A DNA stretch of 63,969 nt, counting the filler, from Ionaspis alba (lineage: Eukaryota): the NCBI GenBank assembly GCA_964255285.1. It is 3 parts of 3 records of this genome, joined end to end, with 100 filler letters (N's around TTAATTAATTAA, not from the genome) between each part and the next. Parts side by side here need not be neighbours in the genome. Positions count along the whole stretch, not along the records: positions 21,512 to 42,921 come from CAXUUL010000223.1; 2 more parts are not named here. One strand, given 5' to 3'. Position numbers and translations under genes: made by a program. The notes beneath the pieces were generated by a model. It had not been told where the DNA came from, ran no database searches, and was given only the letters and a program-made list of their open reading frames with translations. This document shows, one piece after another, positions 8,634 through 42,921 of this stretch. Within the stretch, counting starts at the first letter, position 1. The number at the start of each line of letters is the position of its first letter.

Positions 8634-11297
8634 ATGCTGTTCAGCAAGTTTCTGTTCTGGATCTGCTGGCTACTGGTCAAGGTCCACGCCGACGCCCTTG
8701 CCTACGCCGACGCTGAACCCGTTAACTTGGAGCCAACAGACCAGTCACTAGATGCCAAGAGGAAAGGTGGCCATGTTTTCGAGGTTCAAGGAACGGAGGA
8801 CCTCCCCGCTGGCGAAGATGGAATTACGCAGATGTTGTCGAAAGAAGAGATGAATCGGAAGCTCGAGGAGGCTCGAAAAGGGGAGAATGGTCTGGATGAA
8901 CAGTGGGACAAATCCGTTGCCGACAATCCCGAAGCATGGGAGGGAAAATACCAGAAGAAGAAAAACCCTAGTCAGCATTCACGGCCAATGCTTACCAACA
9001 TGCAAGACCCTGTGAGTGGGAAAGTAGTCTACTCGAGCTCCTTCCGCAGTGGAAACCATGACGAAGGATTCAGAGACCATGGTCGAAAACTCGAACCCGC
9101 TGTTCAAGAAGTATTTGACGAGAATTATCCGGGTGGCAAGAATGACCACAGGAACAGTAATCGATGTGGAGAATGGGGTTGTCTTAATCAAATCGCGAAA
9201 GCGAGAAAGAAACTTCTCGGAGAAAAGCCGAAAGACTTCAGCGGAGTTCAGACCCTATCAAAGGCTGACGGTAATAACGGCGTTGACACTGCTTGCGATG
9301 TCAGTGAAGACAGACCCAAGCCAGGCTGCACGAAGACCATGAAACAGCAGCAAATTCTGGATCTAGCAGTCCCAGAGCAGGCAAAGGAAGCGGAGAAGCA
9401 GAACGTGAAACATATCGAGAATCAACTGGAAGCCAAAGCCAAAGCAGAAGAGGAGAAGAAGATGGCGGAAGCAAAAGCGGAAGAGGAGAGAAAAGCTGCG
9501 AAAGCTGAGAAGAACAGGGCGGCAGCTGAGCGGCTGTTGCAGAAAGAAGCCGAGGCCAAGAAGAAGGCAGAAGAGGTTGAAAAAGCTAAAGCTGCGGCTG
9601 CCCTCCGGCCAAAGAGTAAAGCTGACCAGAGAAGGGAGAAGAAGGCGGCCGAAGCAGCGGCCAAAGAGGCGGCCAAGCAAGCGGCAGCAGAGGGCAGTCT
9701 AGACTGCTCAACGACTCCGTCAGCTAAATTCCGGAGACGAAATCCCGCTTGTGCTATTGATACCAAGAATAAAAATGCGGAGAGTTCCTCCGCAAAGAAG
9801 GGAATCAAGGATGTCAAGTCTAGCAAAGAGGCCGTATCCCCCGAAAAGAAGAAAGTATCACATGTCGTCGATGAGAACTTGGATAAGGAGCGAAAAAATC
9901 ATTCGAAACCTCCCATGACAAAGCCAGAGCCAGCCTCAAATAAAGGGAAACAGACCGCTAAGTCGAGCAATAGCGCCAACGTTTCAAAGAGCAGGAAACC
10001 GGCCAAGGAATCTAAGATCGACTTGAAACAGGGTCACAAGAACCTCGACGGATCACCCGCGACGCAAGTCAAAACTTCATCGGAAACTGGAACCCCAATT
10101 CATATATCGAGCAAAGGAGAAAACGCACCGTCCAAGAATGGGAAGTCCAACAAAAAAACAGGAAAACATCCACATGCGAAACCACCTGCCACAAATCCAG
10201 TGACTGGAAAGTCGGGCAAGCATCGTGGCAAGACCAGTTCAGGTACCAAGAATTCCGGGCAGGTTGGCGACTCCAAACCCGCTGAGAAGAAGGTGGGCGG
10301 AAAGACACCCTCTACAGGCAATTCANNNNNNNNNNNNNNNNNNNNNNNNNNNNNNNNNNNNNNNNNNNNNNNNNNNNNNNNNNNNNNNNNNNNNNNNNNN
10401 NNNNNNNNNNNNNNNNNNNNNNNNNAGAAGCCTACCAAGCACCAAGAAAAGCCGCTTGCGAAGGACAAGAAGACCAAGCCACAGAACAATCAGCAGAAGC
10501 CAGCAAAGTCCAACGATAGCAAGACACCGAAACAACAGCACAAGCAGGCAAAGACACATAATAAAAAGACACCGAAACAGCAGGAGAAGCCTCAGAAGAG
10601 TCAGCAGAAGCTAGCCAAAGCTCAAACCGACAAGGCACCCAAGCATCGGCAGAAACCAGCAAAATCCCAGGACAACAAGCCTCCCAAGCAGCGGAAGAAG
10701 CCTGCAAAGAGTCAGCAGAAGCCGACTAAAGACGAGAATAAGGCTCCAAAGAACCCGCAGAAGCCTAATAAGAATCAGCAGAAGAAAGGTGCAAAGAACT
10801 CGCAGGACAAGCAAGCAACTAGCCAGAACAACAAGCCTGTACAGACTCAGCAGAAGCCGACGAAGGAACAGATCGACAAATCTCCGAAGCATCAACCGAA
10901 GCCTACAAAGAGTCAGCAGAGCAACAACGGGAAGACGCCGTCGAAGCCTGCGACGGGTCAAGATAAGAAGCCGGTAGCGAGTCAGGAAAAGAAGACCAAC
11001 AATGGTGGTCCGAAGACAGGGACAAAAGATGGTGCAAAATCTGGAGGAGGAGCTGGAGCAAAGACCGGAGCAAAGTCTGAGACGAAAGCTGGGGCAGCAG
11101 CTGGAGGGAAGGCTGGGGGAAAGCCTGAAGCCAAAACTACGACAAAATCCGTACCGACACCAGCTGCCACACCAGCAGCCAAATCGGGAGCTAATGCTGG
11201 AGCAAAACCGAAAGCGAAGTCGGGAACGCAGTCGGGGCCTAAGGCTGGAGGGAAGCCTGCAAAGAAGAGTGGAGGCAAGAAGCCTGGCCGAAGGTAG
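8634..11297 (+). CDS. Secreted protein: signal peptide, candidate YwqJ-like deaminase domain, Ala/Glu/Lys coiled coil, long Lys/Gln/Pro-rich low-complexity tail
   Basis: The hydrophobic N-terminus MLFSKFLFWICWLLVKVHA-D looks like a signal peptide. Motifs VVYSSSFRSG, HRNSNRCGE and ACD-x8-GC are present. The ORF spans the N gap at 10326-10425, so its true length is uncertain. Confidence 0.75.
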   Translation: MLFSKFLFWICWLLVKVHADALAYADAEPVNLEPTDQSLDAKRKGGHVFEVQGTEDLPAGEDGITQMLSKEEMNRKLEEARKGENGLDEQWDKSVADNPEAWEGKYQKKKNPSQHSRPMLTNMQDPVSGKVVYSSSFRSGNHDEGFRDHGRKLEPAVQEVFDENYPGGKNDHRNSNRCGEWGCLNQIAKARKKLLGEKPKDFSGVQTLSKADGNNGVDTACDVSEDRPKPGCTKTMKQQQILDLAVPEQAKEAEKQNVKHIENQLEAKAKAEEEKKMAEAKAEEERKAAKAEKNRAAAERLLQKEAEAKKKAEEVEKAKAAAALRPKSKADQRREKKAAEAAAKEAAKQAAAEGSLDCSTTPSAKFRRRNPACAIDTKNKNAESSSAKKGIKDVKSSKEAVSPEKKKVSHVVDENLDKERKNHSKPPMTKPEPASNKGKQTAKSSNSANVSKSRKPAKESKIDLKQGHKNLDGSPATQVKTSSETGTPIHISSKGENAPSKNGKSNKKTGKHPHAKPPATNPVTGKSGKHRGKTSSGTKNSGQVGDSKPAEKKVGGKTPSTGNSXXXXXXXXXXXXXXXXXXXXXXXXXXXXXXXXXXKPTKHQEKPLAKDKKTKPQNNQQKPAKSNDSKTPKQQHKQAKTHNKKTPKQQEKPQKSQQKLAKAQTDKAPKHRQKPAKSQDNKPPKQRKKPAKSQQKPTKDENKAPKNPQKPNKNQQKKGAKNSQDKQATSQNNKPVQTQQKPTKEQIDKSPKHQPKPTKSQQSNNGKTPSKPATGQDKKPVASQEKKTNNGGPKTGTKDGAKSGGGAGAKTGAKSETKAGAAAGGKAGGKPEAKTTTKSVPTPAATPAAKSGANAGAKPKAKSGTQSGPKAGGKPAKKSGGKKPGRR

Positions 11298-16688: not shown

Positions 16689-19600
16689 TCAAGGACTAAG
16701 AAATGGCGGAACTCCCAGAGAAGACCTGCTCCTATTAGCCAGCGACGGCCTCAAGCCAGCTGAACGCGGAGGGCCTTGTTCTGTCGACTCAAGCCCACGT
16801 TTGATCACAGCAACTTCATCGCGCTTCACAAACACGATGTCACCTTGACAAGTGACCTGGATCATGAACTCGATGTTAGTAGTCAACCAATCGGCCGGAA
16901 GAAAGAAATGTCGGATATATTCGTTGGCGCTCGTGGTCTCCGGATCCGCTGAGCAGATCCAATTATCACTATGAAGGAAGATCAGTCGTTGCCCGCTCGC
17001 TCCAATGAGGACTTCGACCGAGTCTGCTAAATGATGATATTTGGGCACTGGCGCTGCGGATGTAGATTTAGGGACAAAGTCCGCCGATCTCCAGAGTAGT
17101 AATTTTGACTTAGTATTTGGCCTTATGCTCTCGCTGAAAGTCGATGCGAGGATGGTGCCGTTGAAACAAGACCTCATGCTGCGAATAGAAAGTTCTGGGA
17201 CGATGTTTCCCTCCAGCATAATACCACGACCCTCAGTCACTCTTCGCAGTGTCCGCCATTCGTAGATATGTGCCTCGTTCTTGATGATTAGGACTAAGTG
17301 CTCTGGATTAGCTGGGTGGCCCGCCCAGCGATAAGGACCACGACCCTCCCAAGAGAGAGTCTCAACAATCTTGTTTCCATCTGGCGATATGGACCACAGT
17401 GTATCTATTTTGGCAGAACAGATGAGCATTCTTGTAAGGCCATGGTTGCTCAATGCTTCATCGATAACGACATCAGCACGATGTTCGAAAATAGGTTCTT
17501 TTGCCTCCCAAATAGGGCTGCGGCTGCCAATCTGCATGGCATGGATGATGATCCGACTTGCAGAGTCAATGCTGATAAGTCTCTGGCTTTGCTCCTCATA
17601 ATAGAGTGACACAACAGCAATACCAAGGGCGTGGTTGAACAGGTTTTGGGTCTGTGTACCAGATTTGGTATCATAAAGACATACCGATCCATCCTCTTTT
17701 CCACAGAAGAAATAGTCCCCATTTCCAAAGGTTGCCAAAGCTGTGATCAACAAAACGTCATCAGAGTTCTCTAAAGTAAATTCCTGTGGAACGGTCGATA
17801 CAGAGACAGTGTCGCTAACTTCCTCGTCCATTTCTTGTCGTATCAGTACAGTTGGGTCCCATACTCGACACTGAGATCCACGAATATCGAGTAGATGTTG
17901 ACTATCGCCGCTAAAAGCAAGCCCCTGTATTCCATACTCTGCTGAATTGATTTTGTATAACAGTTTTAGGGACTCAAATTCGAACAATTTGACAGTTCCA
18001 GAAGGATCACCACTGGCTAAAGTAAGTCCATCCTCGGAACACGCGAGAATATGGGCGAATGCCACTGTTGTCTCCCTTACAACACCTTCAGAAATATCAA
18101 ACAAGATCAAATCTCCGTCCACGTAAGTGGCTGCTAGTAGATTGGCATTCACAGCCTGACTGAAAATAAGACTTCGTACGCCAGGATGAACAATAGCCTT
18201 GTCAGGTTTTGGTCCAGCACCCGTCTGCTTGTTATACGTATCGTGTAACGTGTCGTTTTCGAGATCCCATAAAAGGATGTCCTGGCCGCGATAGCCAATA
18301 GCTAGTAGATTAGTGTCCATACAAAACGCTGCAGCTACTGGACGACGGAAAAGATGCGACGATTGATCTTCCAGGCACTGTGTCCAATCCGCAGAGTCTC
18401 TCAGACTTCCATCACTAAGATCCCACATCATGAAGTGATTGTTTTTCTGTGCACCTAGTAAGAGCCTGTCTTCATCTGTAAAGGCCAAGGCCATGCATTG
18501 TTTAGGTGCGTCCAGACTCCAAATCTGCTCCCACGAAGATGTGTTCCACACACGGACTGTTCGTGAGCCAGCAGAAGCGAGCAGCTCGCTCTGTCTACCG
18601 AAGTGAAGGAGCCTTACAGGCTCTTGGTGTAACAATGCTTGGACCTCCTGACATGTCGTTGCATTGTGTATTGTTATTCTTCCACTAGACATCCCAAGAG
18701 CGAACAGTTGCATTGAGCATGCAAGTGCTGAGAATATCTCCCTTAGGTCAACGATTGTTGATAAGCAATCATCCCAAGCAGTGGCTGAGACGCCAATCAC
18801 GCTGATTCCACGGGCAGATGTTGTCAATTGCTTCCTCAAAGCTGTCTCAGCAGGGCAAAAAGGAGGGATAAGATGAAATATTGAATAAGGAGAAGCTTTG
18901 AGATGTTTGCCGAACTTTGTCACAAGTCGGACAAGATCAGAGGACCAGGAATCCACAAGTGTGACTTCTTTTCCAAAAGGAGACATATGTTTCGATCTTC
19001 TTTTCAGAAAATCTCCTAGAGATCTGGCTGTTTGGATCAAGCGAACCAGGTTCGAATGTTGGGCAATATAGTAGATCCATGCCAGAACATTGGTGGAGCC
19101 CAAAAAATTGGCCAGAGCAAACAGGAAATCATCGTCCATTGATGAAACATAGACGATATGCTCAAACAGCAAGTTGCAGGCATAGCTCTCAAGCTGGGAA
19201 CGTTCTACTGCTGTTCTGCTCGCACTCAATTTGCGTCGTGCGGGAGCTTTCATGTCCCTTCCATTCAGGTATTCCAAGCATGTCATGGCTATTCGTCGAT
19301 GGCCTTCTCTTGCGTCAATTATGAACTCTGAGTCTATCGGCGCTTCTAGAAGAAAGTCTCGAGCAGTTTGGTGGACCATTTGTACGCGCAACTGGGCATC
19401 AACATAAACAAGTTGGCCGCAGCTTGATATGATTGAGCGTTCAAGGCTATCGATTCCTTGTTTTAAGTCCAACTTGAGTGCATCACGTAGTTCCACTGTC
19501 TTGAGAGGGCGGGCTGCGCAAACTGTCCAGACTAGAATTGCTTTAGTAAGCGCCTTCCCGTAAGGTGCTTCAGACATAGAGTTGAGTATTCGCTGATAGA

Positions 19601-21411
19601 GACCGTTCATATTTGACGGAACACTGTCGAGAATATCACGGACTTCAGATAACATGTGAACTTGTCCCAATTCCTGAAGAACCAAAGTGACCCATAGGAA
19701 GCAACCAGCAGACTTTTCGAGTATTTGTTCCACTATATCTTGGCGGCCGAGTTTGTCAATCGAGGGCAATTTGTCCATATTCGCCTCAATATACAATGCG
19801 ATATCAGACTTTGTATCTTCTGGCAGGATTTTATCCTGAATTACCCGATTCTTTGGTGATGTTGTGGTTTTGTATGATTCAAACGTGTTCCGTGATGTGA
19901 CAATGATATGTATAGGACACATCTCGGCAGCTTTTGACAGAAAAGGAACGAGTTCGGCATTGTTTTTGCATTCGTCCAAGGCATCAATTACCCAGTAATG
20001 GGTTTGATCAAGCACCTTGCAAATGCCTTCGAGAAACAATCTTCGCCACACAGAACGATAGTCTTCTTTGATAAGCCCGTCGTCTTTTTCATAGATTTGA
20101 AGTACAGTGTTGAGGACCGAAGGTTGTAAGACTGCAGTTTGCCAAGCCATCGACAGCAGAAATGAGCTGATGATAGATTTGCCCTTGTCGCCGTAATTGA
20201 AGAAATAGAAACTGCAATTCTTGTGTAGCCCCTGGAAGTATCTCACAATTCGGCCACTTAACACTGATTTACCAGTCCCAGGGTTTGCACTAATCCAATA
20301 AAGCTGTTTGTTTGCAGCATTTAGCCACTGGCTGAATATCGGTTTCTTGATAAGCCATTCACATGATCCTGGCATGCGTAAAGCATCCGTACCCATAAGG
20401 TCGTCCTCAGGCGCGTCCGAGACTCCTAGAAAGTTTTTGAGGATTCGACGCTGTTCTGTATGAATCTCATGTCTTGTCGATTTTATATTTGTCCGATGAT
20501 TCTCGATAGCACCGACTAAGGCGTTTCTCACGGTGATGTAATTTGGATCTTTCTGACTAGAATACTTGCATACGTCACGATGGTTTGCATTCAACAACGC
20601 GATCCGCTCGTTGGTATAGCCCAATGTTGCCAGGTCCTTCTCTACCACAAGACCCTTACCAATCCCGTAGTTGGTTGATAGAGTCTCATAAAATGAATAT
20701 AGCTGTATTTCCTGGCTAAAATGAGGGAACTCTTCGTTTATAGACTGGGTTGCGAGCGAGTCACGACGAAGATCACCAACATATGGTTTTGTGCCGATAG
20801 TGACTCGCAAAATCTTTTCTAAAAGCGGGGCCAGGTCCGAACCTCGATGCGGTGTTGCCAGGAATATAATTGTCTTTATTCTTTCGGCAAGGCTTTGGAA
20901 CTCTTTCTTCTGCTTTGCTATAATGTAGGCTCGCTTGATGACCAGGCCGCCCATACTATGGCCGACAAAAACAATGAAATCCTTGGATATCATTAGCTTA
21001 CTTCATTACTACTTCTCTCGATATAGGATTCTTGGAATGTATTGAGTGCTTTATCGTAGGCAGAGCCAGGTATTTTAGAGAAAGGCCAAAAAAAGGAGAA
21101 GGGGGAAAACGTAAAGCTCGTACCTTCGAGCCCCGTGGAATAGCAGGGCAGTCCTGCACAGATCCAAGGAGTGAATTCGCAAAGTCCTGGATATTAAGTG
21201 TGCTCCCTTGTCCCCAGTTAGAATTATATCCAAATGCGTGTATTCGGACATCTCCAAACGCCGGATCTTTTGGCAGCCATTCTCCAGGCCAGAATAGCGA
21301 GGAATTGCCATTTTTGGTCCAAGTACTTCGAGAACCTCCTCTGAGACCATGAACGAATATCAAGTCGGCGATTGCTAGGTCCTGTGGTACGTATAGAGTA
21401 CTGAGCCCAAG
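16689..21411 (-). CDS. Fungal NLR-like protein: alpha/beta-hydrolase (SesB/PGAP1-like), NACHT, WD40; 5' truncated at scaffold end
   Basis: IFVHGLRG and GHSMGG lipase motifs; Walker A ANPGTGKS; Walker B YWVIDALDEC; GCFLWV and HQTARDFL; degenerate WD repeats (VRVWN, ILLWD, CRVWD). Predicted intron 21123-20982. Confidence 0.9.
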
Positions 21412-21511
21412 NNNNNNNNNNNNNNNNNNNNNNNNNNNNNNNNNNNNNNNNNNNNTTAATTAATTAANNNNNNNNNNNNNNNNNNNNNNNNNNNNNNNNN
21501 NNNNNNNNNNN
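21412..21511. other. Artificial scaffold-joining spacer
   Basis: N44-TTAATTAATTAA-N44, which has stops in all six frames. The NLR gene is cut here. Confidence 0.9.
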
Positions 21512-21559: not shown

Positions 21560-23387
21560 ATGGCAGATCTTGAACATCTCACAACTTACTTGGCGCTCAA
21601 CCAGATATCATTTCTGGCCATTGGTGTATCGCTGGCACTCGCTCTATTCTACGCATTATATCTGCGCGCTTTACCCAAACCGATTCCAGGCATCCCATAC
21701 AATGTCGAGTCCTCCCAGCGTCTCCTGGGGGATCTCCCTCACTTCTTCGCGCTCGAGAAGGCGGGGCGACGGATCATGGAGTTCTGGGCCGACGTGAGCC
21801 GCAAACAACAGTCGCCCATCACGCAGTATTTCGCCGGGCCCTTCACCAAATCGGTCGTAATCATCTCGGATTTTCGAGAAGCCAAGGATCTTCTGCTCAG
21901 ACGTGGAAAGCTGCTGGACCATGGGAGCCTCAACACCGGCTTGTGGTTTGGCGCCATCCCCCACCATTTCGTGGGGATGCCCTCGAGCGATCCCAAATAT
22001 GCAAAGTCCAAAAATCTGTCCAACGATCTGATGACGCCGAGCTTTCTGCACAATGTAAGCCCTTCATGAATGCCATCTCGTGGGACTTTCGCTCACGGAT
22101 TCAAAGGTCTCAATCCCCGCATCCTATCAGAAAACAATGAACTTTATCAAGCTCTGGCAGCTCAAAGCGCAGATCGCCAACGAGCACCCTTTTGTCGCCC
22201 TCGAGGATTTCAACTTCCTCACGGGCGACATCATCTGTGCAGCTGCATTGGGCATCTCTGACGACGACAGCGACACTGTGAAGCACTACAAGCGTTTGCA
22301 AGCCGGTAATCTCCGCAAGGGACAGCCAACGTCGCGAGATCAGGTCTATCCGTTCCCCGATTATAAGGCCACTGGTCTCCTCGAGGCGACCCACCTGATC
22401 GCTGATAGCATCACCGGCGCTCGTACGGCATCAATGCCAAAGCTCTACTGGTTCTTCACCAACCTGAGACCCTCCGTAAGCAAGGCCCAGCAGACACGGG
22501 ACCGCATCATGCAGAGCTATATCAACCAGGCCAGCCAGACCGCAGCCCAGACCACATCCGGGACAGGGTACCGCGCCGCTGTCGACTACATCATATCTCG
22601 TGAGATGACGGCGGCGAAGAAGGAAGGTCGACAGCCAGCACTGACCTCGCGCGTGATCCACGACTCTCTCTTCGGATACGTGCTGGGCGGGCAAAGCACC
22701 ACCCACAGCGTCCTGTGCTTCATGATGAAACGCCTCAGCGTGCGCCAGGACGTGCAGAGCAAACTGCGTGGCCATCTCTACAAGGCGTACACCGCCGCCT
22801 CAGCCACGGGACGCAACCCGACCGTCGAAGAATTCCTCGCCATGCGCCTGCCCTACCTCGACGCCGTCATCGAGGAGACTATGCGCCTCAACGTCACCGC
22901 GCCCGTGCTCATCCGCGAGGCTCTCGAAGACCTCGATTTCCTCGGCCACACTATCCCCCGCGGCACCAACATCTTCTGTACGCTGTGGGGCCCCTCCTTC
23001 GACGAGCCGGCTTTCGCCATCGACGAAAAGCTGCGCAGCAAGTCCTCGCAGGCCCACTACGACGAGACGCCCGGCGACTGGACGCGCAGCGGTTTCGCGC
23101 CCGCCGAATTTCATCCCGAGCGATGGCTGCGCAGCGAAGGGGACGGTATCGTCTTCGACATCAAAAACGGCCCCACACTGGGCTTGGGAGCCGGGTCGAG
23201 GGAGTGTTGGGGCAAACGGCTGGCGTACCACGAACTCAAGCTGATCGCTACGCTTATCATCTGGAATTTCGAGCTCCTCCCGCTTCCGGCGGCGCTGCTC
23301 GACACGGAGGTCGTGGATTTCTTCGTGGCTAAGCCTAAGACGTGCTTTGTGAGGCTGCGGAACACCTCGCCCAAGTCGGCTGCATAG
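21560..23387 (+). CDS. Cytochrome P450 (2 exons)
   Basis: N-terminal TM followed by LPKPIPGIPYN; intron 22055-22106 (GTAAGC..CTCAC..AAG) joins the two ORFs; ETMR (ExxR), PERW and heme motif LGAGSRECWG. Confidence 0.93.
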
Positions 23388-26028: not shown

Positions 26029-27325
26029 ATGGGCAGCGCCGCTCCTCTCGTGCCTGACGATAGCCAGTTCACCGTATCCCTGAACGAATATGGCGCCCTC
26101 CTCTCCCATCTCTTCCAGAAGATTGACTATCGACTGCCCAAGCCCTACTACAACCCTGCCATCGAGTCGGCCCTGGCCAAGTACATCGAGGAGCAGCCGT
26201 GGTCGGACAATCTGAAGGCCCGCTCGGACAAGTACGCTAAGCAGGCCGTGGGCATCGCGTCGTGGTATCCGCGGGCATCTTTTGCCTGCCAATTCAACTG
26301 TGTGATCATCACCCTCCTCGTGATCATCTACGACGAGGAATACGCTAGCTTTGGCACCACCGGCACCGAATTTTCCTCGAGACTGGTGCGTGGACAGCCG
26401 CAGAAGGCGCCCTTTCTCGACTCGTTAGCGTAGTAGGTGTCCCTCAGCAGATATATGACAAAACATCCTAACATGGCGGACTAGTTTCCTCCAAAACACC
26501 AACCGGTACCTCGGTCTATATGGGTCATCGATGGTCATCAAGACGACGATCGAGTTCGTCGAAGGCACCAACGTGGAGAACGACTTCAACGAGTTTGTGC
26601 CTGTAGATGCCCTACGCTTCCCGCGCTACCTCCGCGTCAAGACTGGCTTCGCGGAAACATATGCCCACGCCATCTTCCCCAACGACACGTTCCCTGAAGA
26701 ACAGTACCGTAGACTCTACCTTCCCGCGCTGCCCCCGCTCTGCGACATCATCGACTTCACCAATGACATCCTGTCCTTCTACAAGGAGACCATCCGCGGC
26801 ACGGAGCGCATCAACTACATCTGCAACGTCGCCAAATCGACCGGCAGGAGCGCGCTGGAGTGTCTCCAAGAGAGCATCGACGTTGTCGCCAACCGCGTTG
26901 CCGAGGTGCGCCGTATCCTGAAGCCGCACCCGGCGCTCCTGGAGCATGCAAATGACTACCTGGCCGCCTATATCGGTTGGCACATCCGCACCACCTCGCG
27001 CTACCACCTGGACGAGGTCAAGATCATCGTCGGAGTGGATATCGCGGATATAGTAGAGCTGGGCTTGTCGGCGGCGGTCAAGCCAAATCCCACAATGGCG
27101 GCAGCAAACGAGTACATGCCGGCCAGCGTGTTGATTCCAGTTAAGCCAAATGGCACGATGGCGGCAGCGAACGGGTATGTGACGGCCGACATTTCGGCGA
27201 TGCTGAAGCCCAATGGCACGATGGCGGCAGCAAACGATTATGTGACGGCCGGCGTATCGGCGGTGCTCAAGCCCAATGGCGCGATGGTGGCAGCAAACGA
27301 GTATATAACGGCCGGCGTGGCCTAA
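26029..27325 (+). CDS. Trichodiene-synthase-like (Tri5 family) class I terpene cyclase with C-terminal repeat tail (2 exons)
   Basis: Intron 26433-26484 (GTAGGT..CTAAC..TAG) joins the ORFs in frame. Acidic motif IIYDEEY, RYLRVKTG, NSE/DTE motif NDILSFYKE and C-terminal RY (TSRYHL). Confidence 0.9.
27062..27322 (+). repeat. Coding tandem repeat, 4 x 63 bp (21 aa)
   Basis: AAGCC(a/c)AAT recurs at 27080, 27143, 27206 and 27269, an exact 63-nt period. Consensus SAxxKPNGTMAAANxYxTAxx. Confidence 0.95.
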
Positions 27326-27769
27326 AGGGTGATAGATATGGCTAGATCTCTTTCTAGATTGTTATGGTGTTAGGAGGCTCCCATACGTTTATATCTGATA
27401 TTTATTCAATGTTACGTGACCAAATGATTACGGCAAATTGCGATCCTGAAATCACTCTCTTGTTTTGTAGTATATGAGAGATGTTTTTGAATAGATAGTA
27501 ATAGGAAAGCATACATGTATTTTGCTCTACGCGCGGCGGCTTGGCCATTACATGCCAAGGGTGCTGAGATGATCGGTGTCTCAGGTACGCCCTTTGCCCC
27601 GCGCTAGGTGACAGCTAGGTGACACGAGTGACAGCTGTAACACGCTAATTAATGGTACTGAGGCAGCCAATAGATGGAGAGCTGTTTTTTTTTTGACGTC
27701 GAGGCGGATTGAGATTGTTTGTTTGGACAAACACTGCTGTTGGAATGGATTTTTGAACTTGTGAAGTCA

Positions 27770-28510
27770 AATACATTCTGCAAGCCATATCATGATTTCC
27801 CGTTCCTTCCTCATCAGGTCTCGACCCGTACAGGTGCCATGCGGCTGGAAATGTATACAGATCATCATCATCCTCAGTGTGGCATCGGCGATCTTTACCT
27901 GAGAATGGAGCCATCTGCAAATAACTCGCTTCCAACTGCCAATGCCACAAATATGCAAAAGCTTCGCTTTCGCAATGCATTGAACATCCCGTGCTCGATC
28001 CGAAGAACCGCTGTCCCAGGACTCATGGAGCTCTTGCTGCATGAACAGTAATCCCAAGTGTCAGTCCTTTTCAACACCTCGCTCTCGGTCACCATCCATG
28101 GCATACCTAAGCCACTACTTCCTGGAGAAACGCCACCACTGCAGACAATATACATCCCGCTGTTCCGTTTCGTAGGGAACAACAACTTTCACATACCCAG
28201 CGTAAGGCTCGATGGCATCATTGCTGATATTGTACGGCTCCAGGATGAAGCTTTTGAGCGTGGCTATGTCCACTGGATCTTCCTTGAGAACCACTACAAA
28301 CCCGAAGCCTGGAAAGCGAAGGCCACTAGTCAGGGCCATGGTCGTTTAGGGCTAAACGACATCTCCGTCCCACAGTTAAATGAGATGCCTCAGAATGGAG
28401 TGGAGTGGATCGAGTTCTGTATTTGCGAAGCAGGCTCGAATGGAGGTATCAGACCTGATCTTAATCTCTTGTCTTAAGACACGAGGAGTTAGGTTGAGAG
28501 GTGCATATTA
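27770..28510 (+). pseudogene. Truncated pseudogene copy of the tandem unknown family
   Basis: KPYHDFP..RLEMY..DLYLRM..NMQKLRFR..LLHEQ*S..HIPSVRL..LQDEAFERGYVHWIFL..KPEAW aligns to the 29348 and 32635 proteins. In-frame stops at 28049 and 28475 plus a further TAG replacing a conserved Trp. No start region or C-terminal half. Confidence 0.8.
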
Positions 28511-29347
28511 GCTTCGGGAGGTCAGACGGTCCAGCTGTTCATAGAATTTGGAGGAGCTTTTAGAATAACGAACGCGCGGAAAATGTGTCAATTCTTCTAC
28601 CCATCATTGCCTTCTTGAGCTACTGTTTCTAGTCAAATGATTGAGCACGGTTCATCTTGATGAATACAGATACTTTGGTGCACTTATCAGCTGTAATACT
28701 ATGTTTAGAGCTTGTCCTATTAGAAAAATCCAGTAGCTTGTTCGATGAGGTTATTAGTGACAGCAGACTTGGATTTACTATTCTTTAACTTTGTCGGCTT
28801 TGACATCTATATTTCTTGAGGACCAAACGATCGAAATGCCTAAATGACATTGACATTTAATACCGCAAGCACCATGAGCTATGTCTAGCTCCTTAGCTGC
28901 TCGTAGGTTAGCATGTGGCTTCTATATATATATAATCTCTGTCAAGCATTGATTGCGCGTTCGCAATATTCATGGGGATTCTTACTTTGGATAACCGAGA
29001 CCCTAGCCTAGCAGGGATCTCAAAAGCGTCCGTCAACAACACTATACCCGTACATATCTTGACTTCAGAATTTCGGGTCCAAACGCTTCAAGATACTCGA
29101 ACTGAGCTGCCGTCCTGTTTCTCATCTCGAGAACACCTCAGTGTTGCTGCTCAATCACAAAGTAGTGTCTTTAAGCTGCTATTATCAAAGCAGCATTTGC
29201 ATCAACTCAACACAGCTGTCTGAATACGCTGCGGACGTTCACGTTTTCACAACATCAAAGACGACACCGATGGTGAGGCTTGTATTGGCAAGAAGCTCAA
29301 GATCTCGAGTTAGCCGGATTGCTGGATTGTGTTCTTGATTGACTGCG

Positions 29348-31531
29348 ATGAATCAAGCAATGTTTACCTTTCCCATCCCAGCTGAGGCTGGCTGGGGCCC
29401 AAATAATCTTCCACCTGAGCTGTTCAGGTTGGAACCCCCTGCTAACTGGGGACAAGTCAACTGGCCCAACTGTCTCGATGCCCATGGTCAAGTAATACGT
29501 GACCACCGTGGGAGGCCGTACAAAGATTATCCAATTCCTCCGACCATCTCTGTCGATCCTGAGGACTACCGTTTGGAGATATATGGCGATCGCATCGATC
29601 CTAGGATTGAATATCGTGATCTTGTCTTCCGCATGCATCCAGATCCCACATATTCAATATTGAGCACGCAGGCGATGAACATGCGTCGTACAAGGTTTCG
29701 AGACCAACATGGTCTCCCTTGCCATACTCGCCGTGCAGACTTTCCATCCGTCAGTGAACTCCTAAAACACGAACAGTACTCTTGGGACTCTGTGCAGCAC
29801 AACACTTGTCTCCCAGTCCAGCCAGGAGGGCTGATCAGACCTGCATTACAAGCCGGAGGCCCTGCAGTAGTACCACTTCCAGCGAATACTTTCCTGGGTG
29901 GTGTTACACACCACACGCCGAGTGCTCGACTAACGATGGTGTACGAGGAGATCTCCTACTTGCAAGCGTTAGCTTTTGAAAACGGTTGTGCACATTGGAT
30001 TCTCCTACCCAATCATCTCAAGCCAACCGCGTGGACATTAAGAAGAACAGCTCAGCATCGGCCATTTCAAGGACCCAACGATGTCACGTTTCCAGAACCT
30101 AATGCTATTCCACAAACGGCTTTCGCATGGATCAAAGAATGCATTATCGAAGCGGCAGCTGGGACAAGCGGCATGAATATACCGATGTTGAACACCTTAC
30201 CACCGCATGCCCGTGGCTGGGTTTCTCGTTGTATCAGACTTGGCCAGAATAGGGGCCAAAATTTTGGTAACAACACCAATAATGCCACAAGTATTGCCCG
30301 TCCCACGGGTCCCGCTTCTCATACAGGCTTCATTCCTCTCACCAACGCCATTTCTCTGAGTAGTATCTCGCATCCCGCTGTCCACACTACTGCACCTTCT
30401 ATCGATCCAAATCTCGATCCAAGGCTCTTTTCGTCCACCTCCTCGCCGGGAAATCCTTCGCTCGATCTGGTACTTACCGGTCTCATCGACAGCACAGAGG
30501 TCAATTCGGAGGCTCCGAACGTTCACAATTCACACAACTCAGACCATGCGCTGAGAAAACCTAAGCATGGTTCTGCTGGGGAAAGCGACCGAGGAAGCTC
30601 CGAACACCGCGGACCATATAGCGAAATTGATAGCAACATGGTGAGTAACGAAGACAGTACAGACAATGACAAGGACAACAGCAGTATTGATAGTAGCTAC
30701 GGCAAAGACACGAACAAGGATATACGCGGTGACGACAGTGCAGGCAACGACGAGGATAGTGGTCAGGATGATAATCTAAACGACGAAAACGGGATGAACA
30801 GGGACATCCACAACAACGAAGTGGAAGACAACCCTCACAACAGTGACACGGGTAGTGCAAGAAAGCACAGATCTCCAGGAGATGGGAACTACAGTGATTC
30901 AAACAAGGACCCAAATCATCACTCAAATGGGATCAAGGCCGGAGCTCACGTTGAACAAGAATTGAGGCACTCAAATCCTGCTTTCCACCCTGCCGACACG
31001 AGCTACAGAGAGTCTCAGGTGGATGTTGGAGACCCAAGTCAGATTCACGATGTCGGGCCAGAGCAGTCGATCTATGACGGGTATAGCAGTGACGATTCCA
31101 CCAAAATTTCTGGGCCAGGGATCTATGCATCACCAAGTCCAGATCCAAGGCGAGCACGGCTGGACGAGAAAGACTTCCACCAGCCACGCAACAACGATGA
31201 TGGCCACCGCACTGGAGTCAAGGGCAGCAAACGCAAAAGAGAGCCTACACCAGACGTGGAGCCGAACAGCAAGAGGTTCAAGCTGTACCGTGAAACCATG
31301 AGCTCCTTACTCCCACAAGAATCAGCGACAACCGCATTGCCAGTTGTGCATGATTCCAGCTCTAGATCAAGCACTAGCACTGGAAGTGTATTTGGTGACT
31401 CGACGTATGATCCCATGCAGACCTTCCTGGCTTCCGAGTATGGGGTAGCTTTTTGCGATCTCTGGCCCCAATGCCGAGGTATGCCCTATTGTTCGAATTG
31501 TCGACTTTCACATCTCCCAGACGACATTTGA
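29348..31531 (+). CDS. Uncharacterised protein, tandem family copy A (conserved N-domain, acidic disordered linker, NLS, C-terminal Cys4 motif)
   Basis: Long ORF. About 290 N-terminal aa are clearly homologous to the copy at 32635. Contains KRKREP..SKR and ends with CDLWPQCRGMPYCSNCR. Start codon uncertain. Confidence 0.8.
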   Translation: MNQAMFTFPIPAEAGWGPNNLPPELFRLEPPANWGQVNWPNCLDAHGQVIRDHRGRPYKDYPIPPTISVDPEDYRLEIYGDRIDPRIEYRDLVFRMHPDPTYSILSTQAMNMRRTRFRDQHGLPCHTRRADFPSVSELLKHEQYSWDSVQHNTCLPVQPGGLIRPALQAGGPAVVPLPANTFLGGVTHHTPSARLTMVYEEISYLQALAFENGCAHWILLPNHLKPTAWTLRRTAQHRPFQGPNDVTFPEPNAIPQTAFAWIKECIIEAAAGTSGMNIPMLNTLPPHARGWVSRCIRLGQNRGQNFGNNTNNATSIARPTGPASHTGFIPLTNAISLSSISHPAVHTTAPSIDPNLDPRLFSSTSSPGNPSLDLVLTGLIDSTEVNSEAPNVHNSHNSDHALRKPKHGSAGESDRGSSEHRGPYSEIDSNMVSNEDSTDNDKDNSSIDSSYGKDTNKDIRGDDSAGNDEDSGQDDNLNDENGMNRDIHNNEVEDNPHNSDTGSARKHRSPGDGNYSDSNKDPNHHSNGIKAGAHVEQELRHSNPAFHPADTSYRESQVDVGDPSQIHDVGPEQSIYDGYSSDDSTKISGPGIYASPSPDPRRARLDEKDFHQPRNNDDGHRTGVKGSKRKREPTPDVEPNSKRFKLYRETMSSLLPQESATTALPVVHDSSSRSSTSTGSVFGDSTYDPMQTFLASEYGVAFCDLWPQCRGMPYCSNCRLSHLPDDI

Positions 31532-32634: not shown

Positions 32635-34587
32635 ATGGGTACGCTCACCCAAGTTGGTGTTAACCATCGATTCGATACTGACTCCTGATCGAACACAGCA
32701 GCCAACCAGCCTTTTTCTCTAACCACAACACCAATCGCGTCCGAAGCAGGGTGGTCAGGACAAAACCTTCCGGCAGAACTGTTCAGGCTGGAGCCTCCAT
32801 CTACCTGGAGCCAAGGCGTACTCCCAAACGTTGCGATGCATGGTCAGGTAGGTTTGGGGAACAACCGACCATACAAAGCATTCCCAATCCCACCCCACAT
32901 CTCCGTCAATCCAGAAAATTATCGACTCGTTATGTACGGCGATCGTACCGATCCTCGTCTTACATACCGAGATTTGATATTCAGAATGTACCCGGATCAA
33001 GCTCATGGTCTGATGACAACACAGGCAATGAGTATGCAGAGAACCAGATTCCGAGATCTTCTTGGATTAGCATGTTGGGTGAAGCGAACAGACTATCCCT
33101 CGTTAAACGAGATGCTAAAGACAGAACAACTGTCGCTCAATTCCGTACGCCGAAACACCAGCCTGCCTGTAAGGCCTTGGGGTCTCGTGAGGCCAGTTTT
33201 GGAACCGGGCACGTTCCCAGTAGCTCCGCTGCCACTGAATTTCTTCACTGGCAGAACTCAAACCCACGTCCCAAGTCCGCGTCTGGTAAAGGTCTTCAAT
33301 GAAATTGCCAAACTGCAAGACATTGCCTTCGATCAAGGCTATGCTCACTGGCTCTTTCTGCCAAACCACGACAAGCCCAGTGCATGGAATAACAAAGCAG
33401 AGTCACAGCACAGATCTTCGACTGGTCCAGGAGACGTTACATTTCCGGAAGAAGCAGCAATTCCCAGGGACGCTCTCGACTGGATCAAAGAGTGTGTGGT
33501 TCTTGCAGCATCCGGAGAGAGTGGAATGGCAGTTCCGAACGTCCAAGTCCTGCCAAGGCACGCTATCGGTTGGGTTTCCGATTGCATACAAGAAGGTCAA
33601 GACAAAGCTGCAGCCCTAGCTGCGACGCCTGCAAACACTCAAGCAGCGGCTCCGCCTTCGGATAGTACGAGCAAAAAAGATCGCAGTGCTGATTTAATCG
33701 GCGAGGAAGACAACCCTCTTCTTGGGGACTTCGGTGCAGGAGTTCATGGTGAAGAAACAGGAGATAAAGGTGGAGAAGAAAGCGGGGACAAGAGTGGTAG
33801 ACACAATGATAACGATGTTAATGGAAGCATCGACGTTGAAGATGAGGAAATACTCTCAAATGCAGGCTTTGACGAAGATGTGTACACGGACGACATAGCC
33901 GAAGAGATCGAAGGTCATGCAGCAAGTACAACGGAAAAGAGCCACAATGCGCAAACAGATCCACAAGCCATAAACAACAAAGTCACGGACTGGCTGAAGG
34001 GTTCTTACACGCCTCTGGATGTTTTAGCAGATCATCAGCCTGGTTCCCGAAAGCGTGGCCGAACTCCTGATCAGGAATATGCAAGCCCAGTCAAGCGTCA
34101 GAAAACGGGCCCGGGCCTAAGTCCACTTCAAGAAGTCCAAGAAGATACAGACCAGCCGATTGAATATCTTGCGAGAGGCAAGAAGCGTGGCAGAGAGCCC
34201 GATACAGAGCCTTGGGAGCCATCAAAGCGTCCAAGGACCTCCTCGAACACTCACAACGCATTGTTCACAGGTTCTGCCGCCCAAGCGATGCTTACTGGCT
34301 CCGACGGTCAGGCCCTATGGAGACCAACTCCATTCTTGCCGCAACTTCAACCACAGTCGGTCTCCGCCAGTCCAAACATGCGTCCGATCGGGATTTCCAA
34401 TTCCGCTATCGCAGAGGCCGGATCAGAAAGGGTGGTTGTCGATCCGCGCATTCTGACCCAGCAGTACAATGACCCCTTCATGGGAGATTGGTGGCTACCT
34501 TTGCCGCAATCCCCAGGACGGGTCTTCGATCCATGTGAAGATTGGCCAAGCTGTGGGGGACCATCATATTGCTCGAGTTGTCGTTGA
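32635..34587 (+). CDS. Uncharacterised protein, tandem family copy B (2 exons)
   Basis: Micro-exon ATGG plus intron 32639-32698 (GTACGC..CTGAC..CAG) extends the 32836 ORF in frame to include EAGWSGQNLPAELFRLEPP, matching copy A (EAGWGPNNLPPELFRLEPP). Ends with CEDWPSCGGPSYCSSCR. Confidence 0.8.
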
Positions 34588-35687: not shown

Positions 35688-37001
35688 CTATTTATTCAGC
35701 TTCATTTTCAAGAAAGTCAACATATCCTCCAAGCACTCCTTTGAAGCTGCGACTTTCTCTGGGGGGAATAGAACAAAGCCATCTTTGCTTAGCGTATCAG
35801 CGACTATCGAGTTCCACAATATCATCGATTACTTACGAGGTGCGCCCGGGAAGAGTCGGACGATAGCCTCCGCTCCCGACATCTGCCACTTCAAGCCCAT
35901 CATCAATGTATCGTCGAGTAAGCAATCCTCCGTCCCACAAGTGAAGAGCGCTGGGGGAAGATTAAGGCCTGTGAGGTCTTTATAAAATGGGGACATCGAC
36001 GGATCTTTCCGGTCCTCGGGGGAGACACCAGGGAGGAACGCATCCATATATTTGTCCATGATCTTAGGCGTGAGCACTAAAGGCTTCGAAAAGTTTCGAG
36101 CCATAGGGAGGAAGGAGAGATCATAGGCTCCAAAGTTGAGTATCAAGCCTGAGAAGTGGAATTCCGGCTTCGTCTGTTGGAGACGGAACAATGTAAGTAG
36201 ACTCAAATGGCCACCAGCGGACTGGACGCGCTGTTAGAACACACAAGATGATCCAATGGACTTTGATCTCACCTCCCCTCCCATGAATAACAATGGCACG
36301 CCAAACGCCTTCTCCGCATTGTCGACTAACCACTCTGCCACATCAAAGCAGTCCTGAGTGATCGTCAGCAGGTGTACATAACGCAGGATGAATATCGGTA
36401 GGGAGTGACCTCTGGACCTTGCGGAAAGGGATGCTCTGGAGCTAGCCTGTATCCTATGCTAACGACAACAACGTTCGCTCCATCCGCGATGCCTTTGATT
36501 AGCGGGTCTTGACTAATACAGAGTATCTTTAGTCACTGATGATAGTTTCACGCGCGCTACATACTCTTTTTCTGATTGCAATACCCTAAGTAGATGTTAG
36601 CATTGTTCAACAAGTTTTATGTTAAAAAGTACCAGCCGCCACCATGGATATGTGCAAACGCGCCTTTGACAGGGCGGTCGCCTTCCGGCTTCATGATGCG
36701 ACAAGGTATTTGGCGTCGATTGTCGCGGGATGGTATAGAGAAAGGAATGCCGGAGTCGATAACAGTGGGACCTGGTAGAGGAGTTTTGCCTTCTCGTCTG
36801 AGAACTCGATACTGCTCCGCGCCTACCTAATATATTTCCTTAGTCATGGCGACTCAATGGATGATCTCCACTGAACCGTACGTCAAACCACATGGGACCT
36901 GCATTCAGAATGGAGATGAGTTGCTCGTTAAATTTGGTTTGGGCATCGCTGATGGCTTCTGGCCCCAGCTTTGCCGTATCAAGAATCAGGTCACTTTGCA
37001 T
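35688..37001 (-). CDS. Alpha/beta hydrolase fold-3 (HSL-type esterase/lipase), multi-exon
   Basis: Spliced product contains HIHGGGW, GE/SAGGHL (split by an intron), GTEDCLLDD and PGAPH/GF. Confidence 0.85.
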
Positions 37002-38184: not shown

Positions 38185-41100
38185 ATGGCTTCATACCAGT
38201 CATCAGAGTAAGTGTGTCCCGTCATGAGAGGTACCTCTCGCGCACAGTCTCAATCGCAATATCTGCCGGACGCTCTTACGTCACACCAGTACCACGGCCA
38301 ATTCTTACTATGGTGTTTGTGAAATATTCCTAGCTAACTGCAGCTTTATTTCTTAGAATCTATGGCCCTGATCGTTTTACCAATCCTGGACCCGCGCCTG
38401 CCCCACCATCTTCACATCCCAAGCCATTGAAGTTTACACCGTCGATCGCGAACCTTCCAGGCAACTCATCCACGACTAGCTTACAATCTCCTGCTATGAG
38501 ATCTTTCTCGGGTCTTACAAATGGATCCAGCAGTCCAGCGCTATCACGCTCCATGAGTTTCGATCCTAGCGGTAACGACCATAGCGTCCTCAAGAGGGGA
38601 TATGTCAAGTACAGAGACCAGAGCGTTGTGGGATGGTGGAAGAGTAAATATGCCATTCTGCGCCCAACGCAGCTTGAGCTGCAAAAGACGGAGCAGGGAA
38701 AGACTAGTCTGATAGTTCCGCTCAAAGATGTCACTGGGGTTTCGCGATTCGATGACTACCCGCTCTGTATCGAAATCGTTCGAGCTGCAAATCCTTCGGC
38801 TTATCCTGGTGTACCACTACGTGAGCAACCATTGAAAACCATGTATCTGCAATTCAAGGAGGATGGTGAGTTGTATGAGTGGCAAGACGGTATATACACC
38901 CACTGCCCTGCCATCTCTGGCGTGAGCAATCCCACAAATTTCAGCCATCGCGTTCATGTCGGCTTCGATCCCACAAATGGCAATTTCATCGGCTTGCCCA
39001 CCGAGTGGTCAAAGCTCCTGAATTCGTCCGCTATTACCAGGGAAGACTACCAGAAAAATCCCCAGGCAGTGATCGAAGTACTCGAATTTTATTCAGACAT
39101 TACGAAACGTGCCGAGAACCAAGATGACTATTCGAGCTTGATGCCAACACCCCCTATTCAGGTAAATCAAAACAAGCAGCTGGGCCATGGAAGCGGAGGA
39201 TCAGGCATAGCGCCTCCTCGTCCTATGGCACCCGCTGCTATGGAACGTCAAGCTAGTTATCAGAATCAGCAACAGCCGCGCTATATGGAAAATACTCCGC
39301 CACGTTCCCAAGCTGGAACACCAATGCAGACTCAGCGCAAACCATCTGGCCCCGAGAAATTGGTCGACCAAGCAAGTGGTCTTCCAATACGCCAACAAGA
39401 AGCTTCAAGCCAGGCTAAACTGGCAATGGGTGGTGACATGCGTCGTGCAATGGAAGAAGAAGCACAGCGCGTCAAAGCCCAGCAAGAGCAACGAGATCGA
39501 CAACGGCGCGAGGACGCAGAGCAGAGCCTTAGGGAGCAGGAAGCCTACAATGCGGCGATTCCAAAGAAGGTTACTCCGATGGCACAACAAGAGCTTGGTG
39601 GATATGGCGGTTCTTCGGATACTGCGCCTCGCTATAACCCTTCAAGAGCCGCTCCTGCGGCCCCAGGAGTTGACAGAAGTCGTCAGCAGCCCCCAGGCTC
39701 CTTGAGGCAGATGCCAACACAACGCCCATCACCTCAACCTTCAACAAGTCAAGGAGGATCGTCCTCTGCAGTACCGCGTGCACCCTATGCGCAATCTTCG
39801 CGAGATCACTCACCCGGTACTCAAAGTTCTTTACGTACCCCTCCTCGGAATGACCAGCAGCAGCGACAACCTTCTCCCAGCGCCCGGCGGCCGGGTGGTA
39901 GCGAGAGGCACCAGTCGCCACAAGCTCGTGCTCCTCAAACCAACGGTACCACAGCTCCGAGCCGTCTGCCTGGCCCAGTGCAACAGGTCAAGCCTCTCAA
40001 TGTTTCTTCCAAAGCTCCGAATGGAACCTCCGCAAATGGTCAGCAAAGCAGAGCTCATGTTCCAGATGGAGTCAAGCAGGCCGAGAGTGCTCTTACTTCT
40101 AAGGCGCCTGCAGCAGAGACTCGCCAGAAAGAAGTCCGTATGTCTAGCATGTCCGAGAGCGAAGTGATGAGCAAGTTGAAGAAGATCGTGACGAGGCACG
40201 ACCCCGTGGAATCTTATGTGAAGCAGCGCAAGATTGGTCAGGGCGCTTCTGGCTCGGTTTACATCGCAAAGGTCCTCGCAGATGCGACTTCTCCAGTTGC
40301 AAGATCTGTTTATAAGAAGGACGGTGGTGAAGCCCGTGTTGCAATCAAAACAATGGATCTACGGAACCAGCCGAGAAAAGAACTCATCGTAAACGAGATC
40401 ATTGTTATGAAAGAAAGCGTCCATCCGAATATCGTCAATTATCTCGACTCTTTCCTTATCGAGAACGACACTGAGCTTTGGGTCATCATGGAATACATGA
40501 ATGGTGGAGCTCTGACCGATGTGATTGAGAACAACCAAAGCATTTCCGAGGATCAGATTGCTGCAATCTGCCGCGAGGTACGTATAAAGAGGAGCTGCCT
40601 GCAATATTCGAGCTGCTTACCGTACTGTGATAGACTTGCAAAGGCTTAGCACATCTCCACGGCCAAGAAATTATACACCGCGATATCAAGAGTGACAATG
40701 TGCTCCTAGACTCCCACGGTCGTGTCAAGATCAGTAAGTACATCGCTCAAATGTATGAATGAAGCCCCAGAAGTCTAACGAGAAGCTCCTCAGCCGATTT
40801 TGGTTTCTGCGCCAAACTGACAGTGGATAAATCCAAGCGTGCTACTATGGTCGGCACGCCATACTGGATGGCGCCCGAGGTGGTCAAGCAAAAAGAGTAC
40901 GGTTCGAAAGTCGATATCTGGTCCCTCGGAATCATGGCCATTGAGTTGATTGAGAGCGAACCACCCTATCTGAACGAGGAGCCGCTCAAAGCACTATTCC
41001 TCATCGCTACCAATGGCACTCCGAAGCTGCAGCACCCCGAGAAATTGAGTGTGGCTTTGAAGCAGTTCCTGAGCACTTGTCTTTGTGTGGATGTCAAATC

Positions 41101-41251
41101 TCGATCTACTGCTGCCGACTTGCTCCAATGCGATTTCTTGCGCAAAGGAAATGCGGCAACTCTGGCCCCACTACTAAGGTGAGTGCCTACTCAGCTGCAC
41201 AGAGTGGAGCCAATGTACTGATAGCCCATAAGATATAAAAGCAAGCCTTGA
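38185..41251 (+). CDS. CLA4: PAK-family Ser/Thr kinase Cla4 (PH, CRIB and kinase domains)
   Basis: NPGPAP N-terminal motif after intron 38208-38356; PH domain; [20 protein letters not shown]; kinase motifs [17 protein letters not shown] and [12 protein letters not shown]. Confidence 0.95.
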
Positions 41252-42231: not shown

Positions 42232-42921
42232 ATGAGTGTTTCATGTAGGAAGCTTTTAGGCTTTCAATGCCCTCGATGTCTCCGCAATTTTTCGTCCACG
42301 CCTCGACAGCTGGCTGTCAAGGACATCAGAGAGCTACCGCCTCGATTATATCCCAGATACACAGGTACGCACCTAACTAAGCCAAATCATCTCCCTGTCA
42401 CTCAGACTCGCAGAGACTAAGGAAAATGACCTCCTTGCCCTCCGATGGCCATCGCCAGCGAGAAACATCCTGCTCGTTAAGAAAGATTGCTCGCAGCGCG
42501 CCACAGATGCCCTTATTGAATTCTCAAAGTAAGTCCTCCTGATGCCCCTCAAGCCTTCCCATATTGAGCAATCTTTCCACAGATACGTAACGGCCACATA
42601 CCCCTCCATATCTCTAATACTCGAGCCTCACGTTGCGCGATCCCTCCACGAAACCTTGCCCGTTCCCGTCTACACCACTCTATCTCCTAACACCAACTCA
42701 CTCTTAGAGACAAACATAGCTTCCAGTCTACTTCGCGAGAAAACAGACCTCATAACCACCTTTGGCGGCGATGGCACTCTCCTCCATGCTTCCTCCCTTT
42801 TCAGCCAAACTTCCACCGTCCCGCCCCTCCTCTCCTTCACGCTCGGCACTTTGGGCTTCCTCAACGAGCACAAATTCCCTACCCACCCTCGTGCGTTCGA
42901 CGGACTCTACACCTCGGGACT
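42232..42921 (+). CDS. POS5: Mitochondrial NADH kinase, 3' truncated at scaffold end
   Basis: Mitochondrial-type presequence (RNFSSTPR); LRWPSPARNILLVKK; GGDGTLLHASSLF; SFTLGTLGFL. Confidence 0.88.

Follow-up and report, generated by a model that had tools for sequence, protein, structure and literature searches.

A sydonol-type bisabolene cyclase of Ionaspis alba with a C-terminal tandem repeat that probably grew from an older single motif

The window, i.e. the whole stretch of Ionaspis alba DNA analysed here (63,969 nucleotides, filler included), contains one contig at positions 21512-42921 (CAXUUL010000223.1) that carries a two-exon terpene cyclase gene ending in a tandem repeat, together with two P450 genes. 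An earlier note on this DNA had described the cyclase tail as four Tyr-containing repeats and had proposed several readings of it, including a fusion between an enzyme and the precursor of a ribosomally synthesized peptide (RiPP), an assembly or docking tag, and a neutral minisatellite. The relevant features are as follows:

21560..23387, plus strand: P450-B, 591 aa with a predicted intron at 22055-22106; 76-77% identical to OJJ53428, OJJ08317 and EED21293
23843..25453, minus strand: P450-A, divergent from the cyclase gene; 81% identical to A. sydowii OJJ53425, A. versicolor OJJ08320 and T. stipitatus EED21294
26029..26432, plus strand: exon 1 of the Syd1/SydA-type bisabolene cyclase, with the ATG at 26029 and the metal-binding motif DEEYA, supported by the residue match
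26433..26484, plus strand: intron of 52 nt (GTAGGT...CTAG), supported by a constant offset of the Syd1 residues and a spliced joint in run X1
26485..27325, plus strand: exon 2, with the NSE motif NDILSFYKE, the RY motif, a linker, four repeats and the stop; matches PF06330 and the PDB SydA entry
27080..27142, plus strand: repeat unit 1, the most diverged, with 67-76% nucleotide identity to the other units
27143..27205, plus strand: repeat unit 2, from the tandem repeat search (TRF) and translation
27206..27268, plus strand: repeat unit 3, 86% identical to unit 2 and 85% to unit 4
27269..27322, plus strand: repeat unit 4, terminal, 18 codons; shares homology with the one unit that ends the Aspergillus and Talaromyces orthologues

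Exon 2 of the cyclase matches the TRI5 family in Pfam (PF06330, E 1.4e-16) and also Terpene_syn_C_2, exon 1 has no Pfam match, and a search of exon 2 against PDB recovers SydA (8yzx) with E 1e-101, which bears out the Tri5-fold assignment of the earlier note. This is the single TRI5 match in the genome assembly. The spliced core aligns with SydA-type cyclases along its full length and is 79-80% identical to the proteins of A. sydowii, A. versicolor and T. stipitatus; 245 of 307 residues (80%) are identical in A. sydowii OJJ53426, which is the CBS 593.65 orthologue, whereas the characterised Syd1 comes from strain LF51. All 14 key Syd1 residues listed in PMC12434612 are kept at a constant offset, and the features of the Syd1/SydA family are present, namely the TRI5-family fold, the altered DEEY motif, the NSE motif and RY. 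The homologue P0027, from another A. sydowii strain than LF51, has the DEEYM motif of Syd1.

Two in-frame donors are possible for the intron. The donor used in the model (intron 26433-26484) gives a 414-aa cyclase with the 14/14 residues at one offset, and the alternative at 26430 was rejected on the X1 spliced joint and the Syd1 residue offset. Run X1, which represents a near-identical strain, has one contig that skips this intron and a second one that is gapless from 26962 to 27342, through the RY motif, all four units and the stop; it is a single run with a depth of about 3 whose RNA nature is only guessed and which may contain DNA, and regions without coverage in X1 or X3 are uninformative. 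The tail is thus likely exonic, as the earlier note had supposed, and likely translated. An antisense ORF at 26612-27361 was taken as a shadow frame.

The biochemistry of the orthologous pathway has been established for A. sydowii (PMC12434612). Purified Syd1 alone cyclises farnesyl diphosphate to a bisabolene triene, Syd2 aromatises the triene, and Syd3 hydroxylates C15 to give sydonol; yeast expressing syd1, syd2 and syd3 produces sydonol, and there the reactive intermediate also captured cysteine and ethanolamine, giving shunt products. The presence of two P450 neighbours, reported in the earlier note, is confirmed, and they are orthologues of the A. sydowii P450s, with 81% identity for P450-A (OJJ53425) and 77% for P450-B (OJJ53428). 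Orthologues of the cyclase and the P450s have near-consecutive accessions in A. sydowii, A. versicolor and T. stipitatus, and the equal lengths of the contigs in cyclase and P450 records suggest, indirectly, that P450-A stands beside cyclases of one to four units alike. Both P450s therefore already have a terpene substrate, since the A. sydowii cyclase and two P450s make sydonol in yeast. Judged by sequence, the gene is the orthologue of the bisabolene cyclase of the sydonol pathway, flanked by the orthologues of the two P450s of that pathway; by this orthology the cluster product would be sydonol or a close relative, A. sydowii being the one species for which it has been demonstrated.

The locus shares with the syd cluster of A. 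sydowii (Syd1, Syd2, Syd3; PMC12434612) and with SydA of A. versicolor (8yzx, 8yzu, 8yzy) a core that is about 80% identical, all 14 listed residues, both flanking P450s (76-81%) and one homologous C-terminal unit. It differs in having four Tyr-bearing units instead of one Tyr-less unit, and in that the contig, which starts 48 bases before P450-B, showed no SDR (syd4), transcription factor or MFS gene. Two side observations concern the wider family. Eight fast-evolving relatives from the clade that bears the repeats (P0011, P0014-P0016, P0018-P0020 and P0064) have the Phe equivalent to Syd1 F187 replaced by M, L, V or I and may make other sesquiterpenes, because the F187A substitution altered the product of Syd1 (PMC12434612). 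Two P450s labelled Fusarium avenaceum, P0075 (WGZ60649) and P0133 (WGZ60652), fall inside the Aspergillus 90% clusters of P450-A and P450-B, which reflects either a transferred cluster or a labelling matter.

Downstream of the cyclase lie three tandem paralogues on the plus strand (28052-28477, 29339-31531 and 32689-34587) that have no Pfam match; the first is a fragment, and the two long ones are 53% identical over 317 aa and both end in CxxWPxC..YCSxCR. The rest of the contig holds ordinary genes: an alpha/beta hydrolase fragment (35829-36233, minus), a PAK-type kinase (38334-41182, plus) and an NAD kinase (42533-42919, plus). Off the cyclase contig and separated from the cluster by an N gap, an NLR-like gene at 16689-21459 (minus) combines a PGAP1-like hydrolase, an NPHP3_N-type NTPase and WD40, apparently in two or three ORFs. 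Another set of coding tandem repeats, K/Q/P-rich and with periods of 21, 45 and 111, occurs at 10476-10784 (plus) in ORF 8625-11297; this ORF runs across an N gap and matches nothing in Pfam.

TRF reports a single array in the cyclase tail, at 27077-27319, with period 63, 3.9 copies, 79% matches, 0% indels and a score of 234, so that the exact 63-nt period without indels holds as described; the four translations given earlier also agree exactly. In the register that starts at KPN, the unit starts fall at 27080, 27143, 27206 and 27269 and the whole array covers 27080-27322, followed by the stop at 27323-27325; the start at 27062 in the earlier note adds six codons of lead-in before unit 1. The tail is in frame with the TRI5-family domain, extends 104 residues beyond the RY motif and contains no frameshift or stop inside the four units. 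Nine of the 18 shared positions are invariant across the units (K1, P2, N3, M6, A8, A9, N10, Y12 and A15), and nucleotide identity between units ranges from 67 to 86%, with unit 1 the most diverged. The units are rich in Ala, Val, Asn and Gly, each with two regularly spaced Asn, one Pro and one Tyr. No other copy of the unit was found in the genome assembly, where the cyclase tail was the sole candidate. A transmembrane anchor in the tail was considered unlikely, since the best 19-residue hydropathy is 1.88 and is broken by K, N, D and E.

The tail lies outside the Tri5 fold, as previously claimed. AlphaFold2 with a 33-row alignment models the cyclase half as helices and residues 182-279 as coil with pLDDT below 50, the block means over the repeats being 25-32; a single-sequence model of the tail had a mean pLDDT of 40 and was not usable. 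The three PDB sequences of SydA (306-317 aa) stop before the unit, and therefore the cyclase fold does not need it. The low pLDDT would also fit a motif that folds on binding.

To follow the unit in homologues, we used 26 cluster representatives, the cyclase of the window included, and a profile of 17 units from six repeat-bearing proteins, counting units at a score cut of 17 chosen by us; the profile is circular for those six proteins because it was built from their own units. The representatives carry no unit in 11 cases, one in eight, two in two, three in four, and four in one, where some zero counts may be truncations because automatic gene calls supplied many of the homologues as exon-2 fragments (the zero-unit P0009 is a crystal construct). 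The orthologues of A. sydowii, A. versicolor and T. stipitatus each have one homologous C-terminal unit with Leu or Met at the Tyr position. The unit-profile score was reached by none of 1000 shuffles for P0027, P0028, P0033, P0063 and P0038 and by one of 1000 for P0012; the profile found no unit in P0017, P0018, P0020, P0023 and P0044. Tyr occupies its position in 16 of 28 units and is missing in 12, Pro is kept in 11 of the 17 profile units, and all seven multi-unit representatives end in a Tyr-bearing unit. The earlier note had asked whether orthologues keep a similar repeat and the same P450 neighbours: the neighbours are the same in the three named genomes and a homologous unit is present in relatives, copies vary from 0 to 4, and Aspergillus and Talaromyces have only the single Tyr-less unit.

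The tree of 37 exon-2 cores groups every multi-unit protein in a single clade of 21 rows, with support of 89/98 (below the star threshold); one-unit and zero-unit members belong to this clade as well. P0004/P0045 have units shortened to 19 residues, P0006 and P0007 have decayed arrays, and five further records (P0040, P0041, P0043, P0056 and P0059) carry frameshift-like sequence at their ends where the unit would be. P0061 has three full units and a fourth that breaks into unrelated sequence, either a frameshift or a gene-call artefact. Against the Aspergillus proteins, the terminal 18 residues show 7-10 identities in an ungapped alignment, compared with 81-84% identity over 160 core residues. 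A phmmer search of the tail against 1.84 billion representatives, a set that hides relatives clustered under a tail-less cyclase, gave two matches only and no similar repeat family; both matches, a KPNG-rich 991-aa protein and an Ala/Gly-rich 528-aa protein, were judged compositional. A search of the ESM Atlas with the tail gave one match at 0.76, a low recognition. A first metagenome scan yielded no relatives, and a second one yielded 43 loci at 25-40% identity, with no repeat tail in the 39 of 43 that were read out and no unit-profile match in any of the 43. From the comparison of these proteins, the unit is an old C-terminal peptide that is single and Tyr-less in Aspergillus and Talaromyces and occurs in multiple copies in one clade only.

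With each column counted a single time, 8 synonymous and 23 non-synonymous changes separate the four units, where the neutral synonymous share is 26% (p 0.58), and for this reason the synonymous codon differences pointed out earlier (CCA/CCC, GCA/GCG and TAC/TAT), although present, are no proof of selection. The motif half has 4 synonymous and 6 non-synonymous changes (p 0.19) and the linker half 4 and 17; pairwise dN/dS among the units, from non-independent pairs and a post hoc split, comes to 0.64 when pooled, while the motif half gives 0.35 and the linker half 1.16. Five tail codons differ between X1 and the window, every one of them non-synonymously: two belong to the lead-in, two encode A8 in units 2 and 3, and one lies in a linker. 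The covered core, by comparison, has 3 synonymous and 1 non-synonymous differences (Fisher p 0.048 and 0.030). The X1 differences come from single contigs at a depth of about 3, may include errors, and leave out differences near contig ends. Change among the four units fits near-neutral evolution. Conservation of the terminal motif relative to Aspergillus may mean selection on the motif, and the single terminal motif may be under weak selection. The uninterrupted frame of the four units and the Tyr-bearing last unit of all seven multi-unit representatives also speak against pure drift.

The proposal that this protein joins the cyclase to a multi-core RiPP precursor, with the tail Tyr residues modified by the cyclase or the P450s and the cores released by a protease, starts from real resemblances: translation of the tail is likely, a prolyl oligopeptidase could cut at the Pro present in each window unit, and the layout of an enzyme with a C-terminal extension recalls borosins, as the Tyr repeats recall dikaritin cores, in the accessible text of PMC9233826. 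According to the accessible parts of PMC9233826 and PMC12048977, borosins are methyltransferase-core fusions cut by a prolyl oligopeptidase, and dikaritin precursors have a signal peptide, Kex2-cut repeats and UstYa oxidases. Like the OphMA-type borosins, the protein studied here has a catalytic domain followed by a C-terminal peptide extension; unlike them, its catalytic part is a terpene cyclase, for which the small-molecule substrate is known, and not a peptide N-methyltransferase, a domain for which Pfam gives no match in the cyclase protein. A search for prolyl oligopeptidase (PF02897) gave no match in the incomplete assembly, in which the contig ends close to P450-B. With dikaritins and other Kex2-processed repeat proteins (ustiloxin, phomopsin, asperipin, epichloecyclin) it shares tandem imperfect Tyr repeats, but these are fused to an enzyme and their Tyr is not conserved, being absent from 12 of 28 units and from every named orthologue. 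The 104-aa tail has no KR, RR, KK or RK that would serve as a Kex2 dibasic site, a crude hydropathy scan gives no ER signal peptide or hydrophobic N-terminus (highest 11-residue mean 0.65 in the first 30 aa), and none of 15 UstYa/DUF3328 matches in the genome lies on the cyclase contig, which begins 48 bases before P450-B. Biarylitides and cittilins have a conserved aromatic pair in a short precursor and a dedicated P450; the units studied here have one Tyr at most, and the P450s are orthologous to enzymes of known terpene substrate. The active site of the cyclase is unchanged (14/14), Pro is found in no more than 11 of the 17 profile units, the examined ORFs of the contig include no methyltransferase or peptidase (an M20 peptidase at 48998 is off it), and phmmer found no stand-alone precursor with the unit among the 1.84 billion representatives. 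Our literature search, with most subscription journals outside it, found no cyclase-RiPP fusion. Since the three genes are orthologues of a characterised sydonol cassette, the unit is single and Tyr-less in the Aspergillus and Talaromyces orthologues, the copies vary from 0 to 4, and the testable defining features of borosins and dikaritins are missing, the fusion reading of the earlier note is not supported, and we regard it as extremely unlikely. The 15 UstYa/DUF3328 matches lie elsewhere in the genome (contigs C24, C99, C122, C702, C745, C1123, C1126 and C1150), where there may be real dikaritin-type loci.

The unit could instead act as a short linear motif, either docking the soluble cyclase to a partner such as the ER-anchored P450s or controlling where the enzyme resides or how fast it turns over, with two to four copies adding avidity and helping to channel the volatile and reactive triene. 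From Aspergillus to the repeat clade, the extreme C-terminus retains the motif, the motif half of the unit changes more slowly than the linker half, and the P450 partners are co-inherited, with adjacent accessions in the three named genomes and, as indirect evidence, contigs of equal length for cyclase and P450 records with one to four units. The accessible parts of two papers on Tri5 describe it as cytosolic (PMC5347122) and yet propose that it interacts with the ER toxisome (PMC9134587). The toxisome system of Fusarium graminearum thus offers a soluble TRI5-family cyclase that feeds membrane P450s and a proposed recruitment, but its similarity is distant (PDB matches with E about 1e-9) and those parts of the papers mention no repeat tail for Tri5. 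Since copy number is unstable, the unit is absent or replaced in several relatives, strain differences strike the motif Ala in two units, and purified Syd1 alone is active in vitro, we consider docking no more than tentative; that the 21-residue unit is an unrecognised motif tethering Syd-type cyclases to ER P450s, with one clade tuning channelling through one to four copies, seems unlikely. Self-assembly of the repeats into a filament, amyloid-like fibre or condensate that clusters the cyclase would suit the 21-residue period, which fungal HET-s-type amyloid repeats also have, and the Ala/Val/Asn/Gly-rich units with two regularly spaced Asn. It is very unlikely given the Pro in each unit, the 19-residue and decayed variants in relatives, the lack of a confident AlphaFold2 fold with or without an alignment, and the lack of a similar repeat family among the 1.84 billion representatives beyond the two compositional matches.

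The observations are best explained by a near-neutral expansion, in which a tail that is likely disordered and catalytically dispensable probably arose when an older, single motif at the C-terminus was duplicated in frame and in tandem. The neutral minisatellite, which the earlier note had listed as an option, fits best in this refined form, given the 8:23 changes and the 0-4 copies; we infer the disorder, the catalytic dispensability and the mechanism of duplication. The cyclase would convert farnesyl diphosphate to the bisabolene triene, which one P450 would aromatise and the other hydroxylate at C15, giving sydonol or a close relative as orthology predicts. In one clade the last ~21 codons would have been duplicated by slippage or unequal crossing-over, and because a disordered C-terminal tail tolerates duplication, copies would come and go (0-4) and change at close to the neutral rate, which was seen within this gene from small numbers of changes. 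A weak function may reside in the single ancestral motif, to which extra copies probably add little.

With this locus, the sydonol cassette is known from one more fungal lineage, and the expansion of a coding repeat is recorded on a biosynthetic enzyme; a literature search that left most subscription journals outside found no earlier description of this expansion. For RiPP mining it carries a caution, as Tyr repeats beside P450s are not enough; a cyclase-RiPP fusion, if true, would be new in kind, and the evidence is against it. If the docking reading were true, the unit would be a natural metabolon tag scalable by copy number, channelling between cyclase and P450s could be tested directly on the natural 0-4 copy series, and pathway engineering could gain a short tag.
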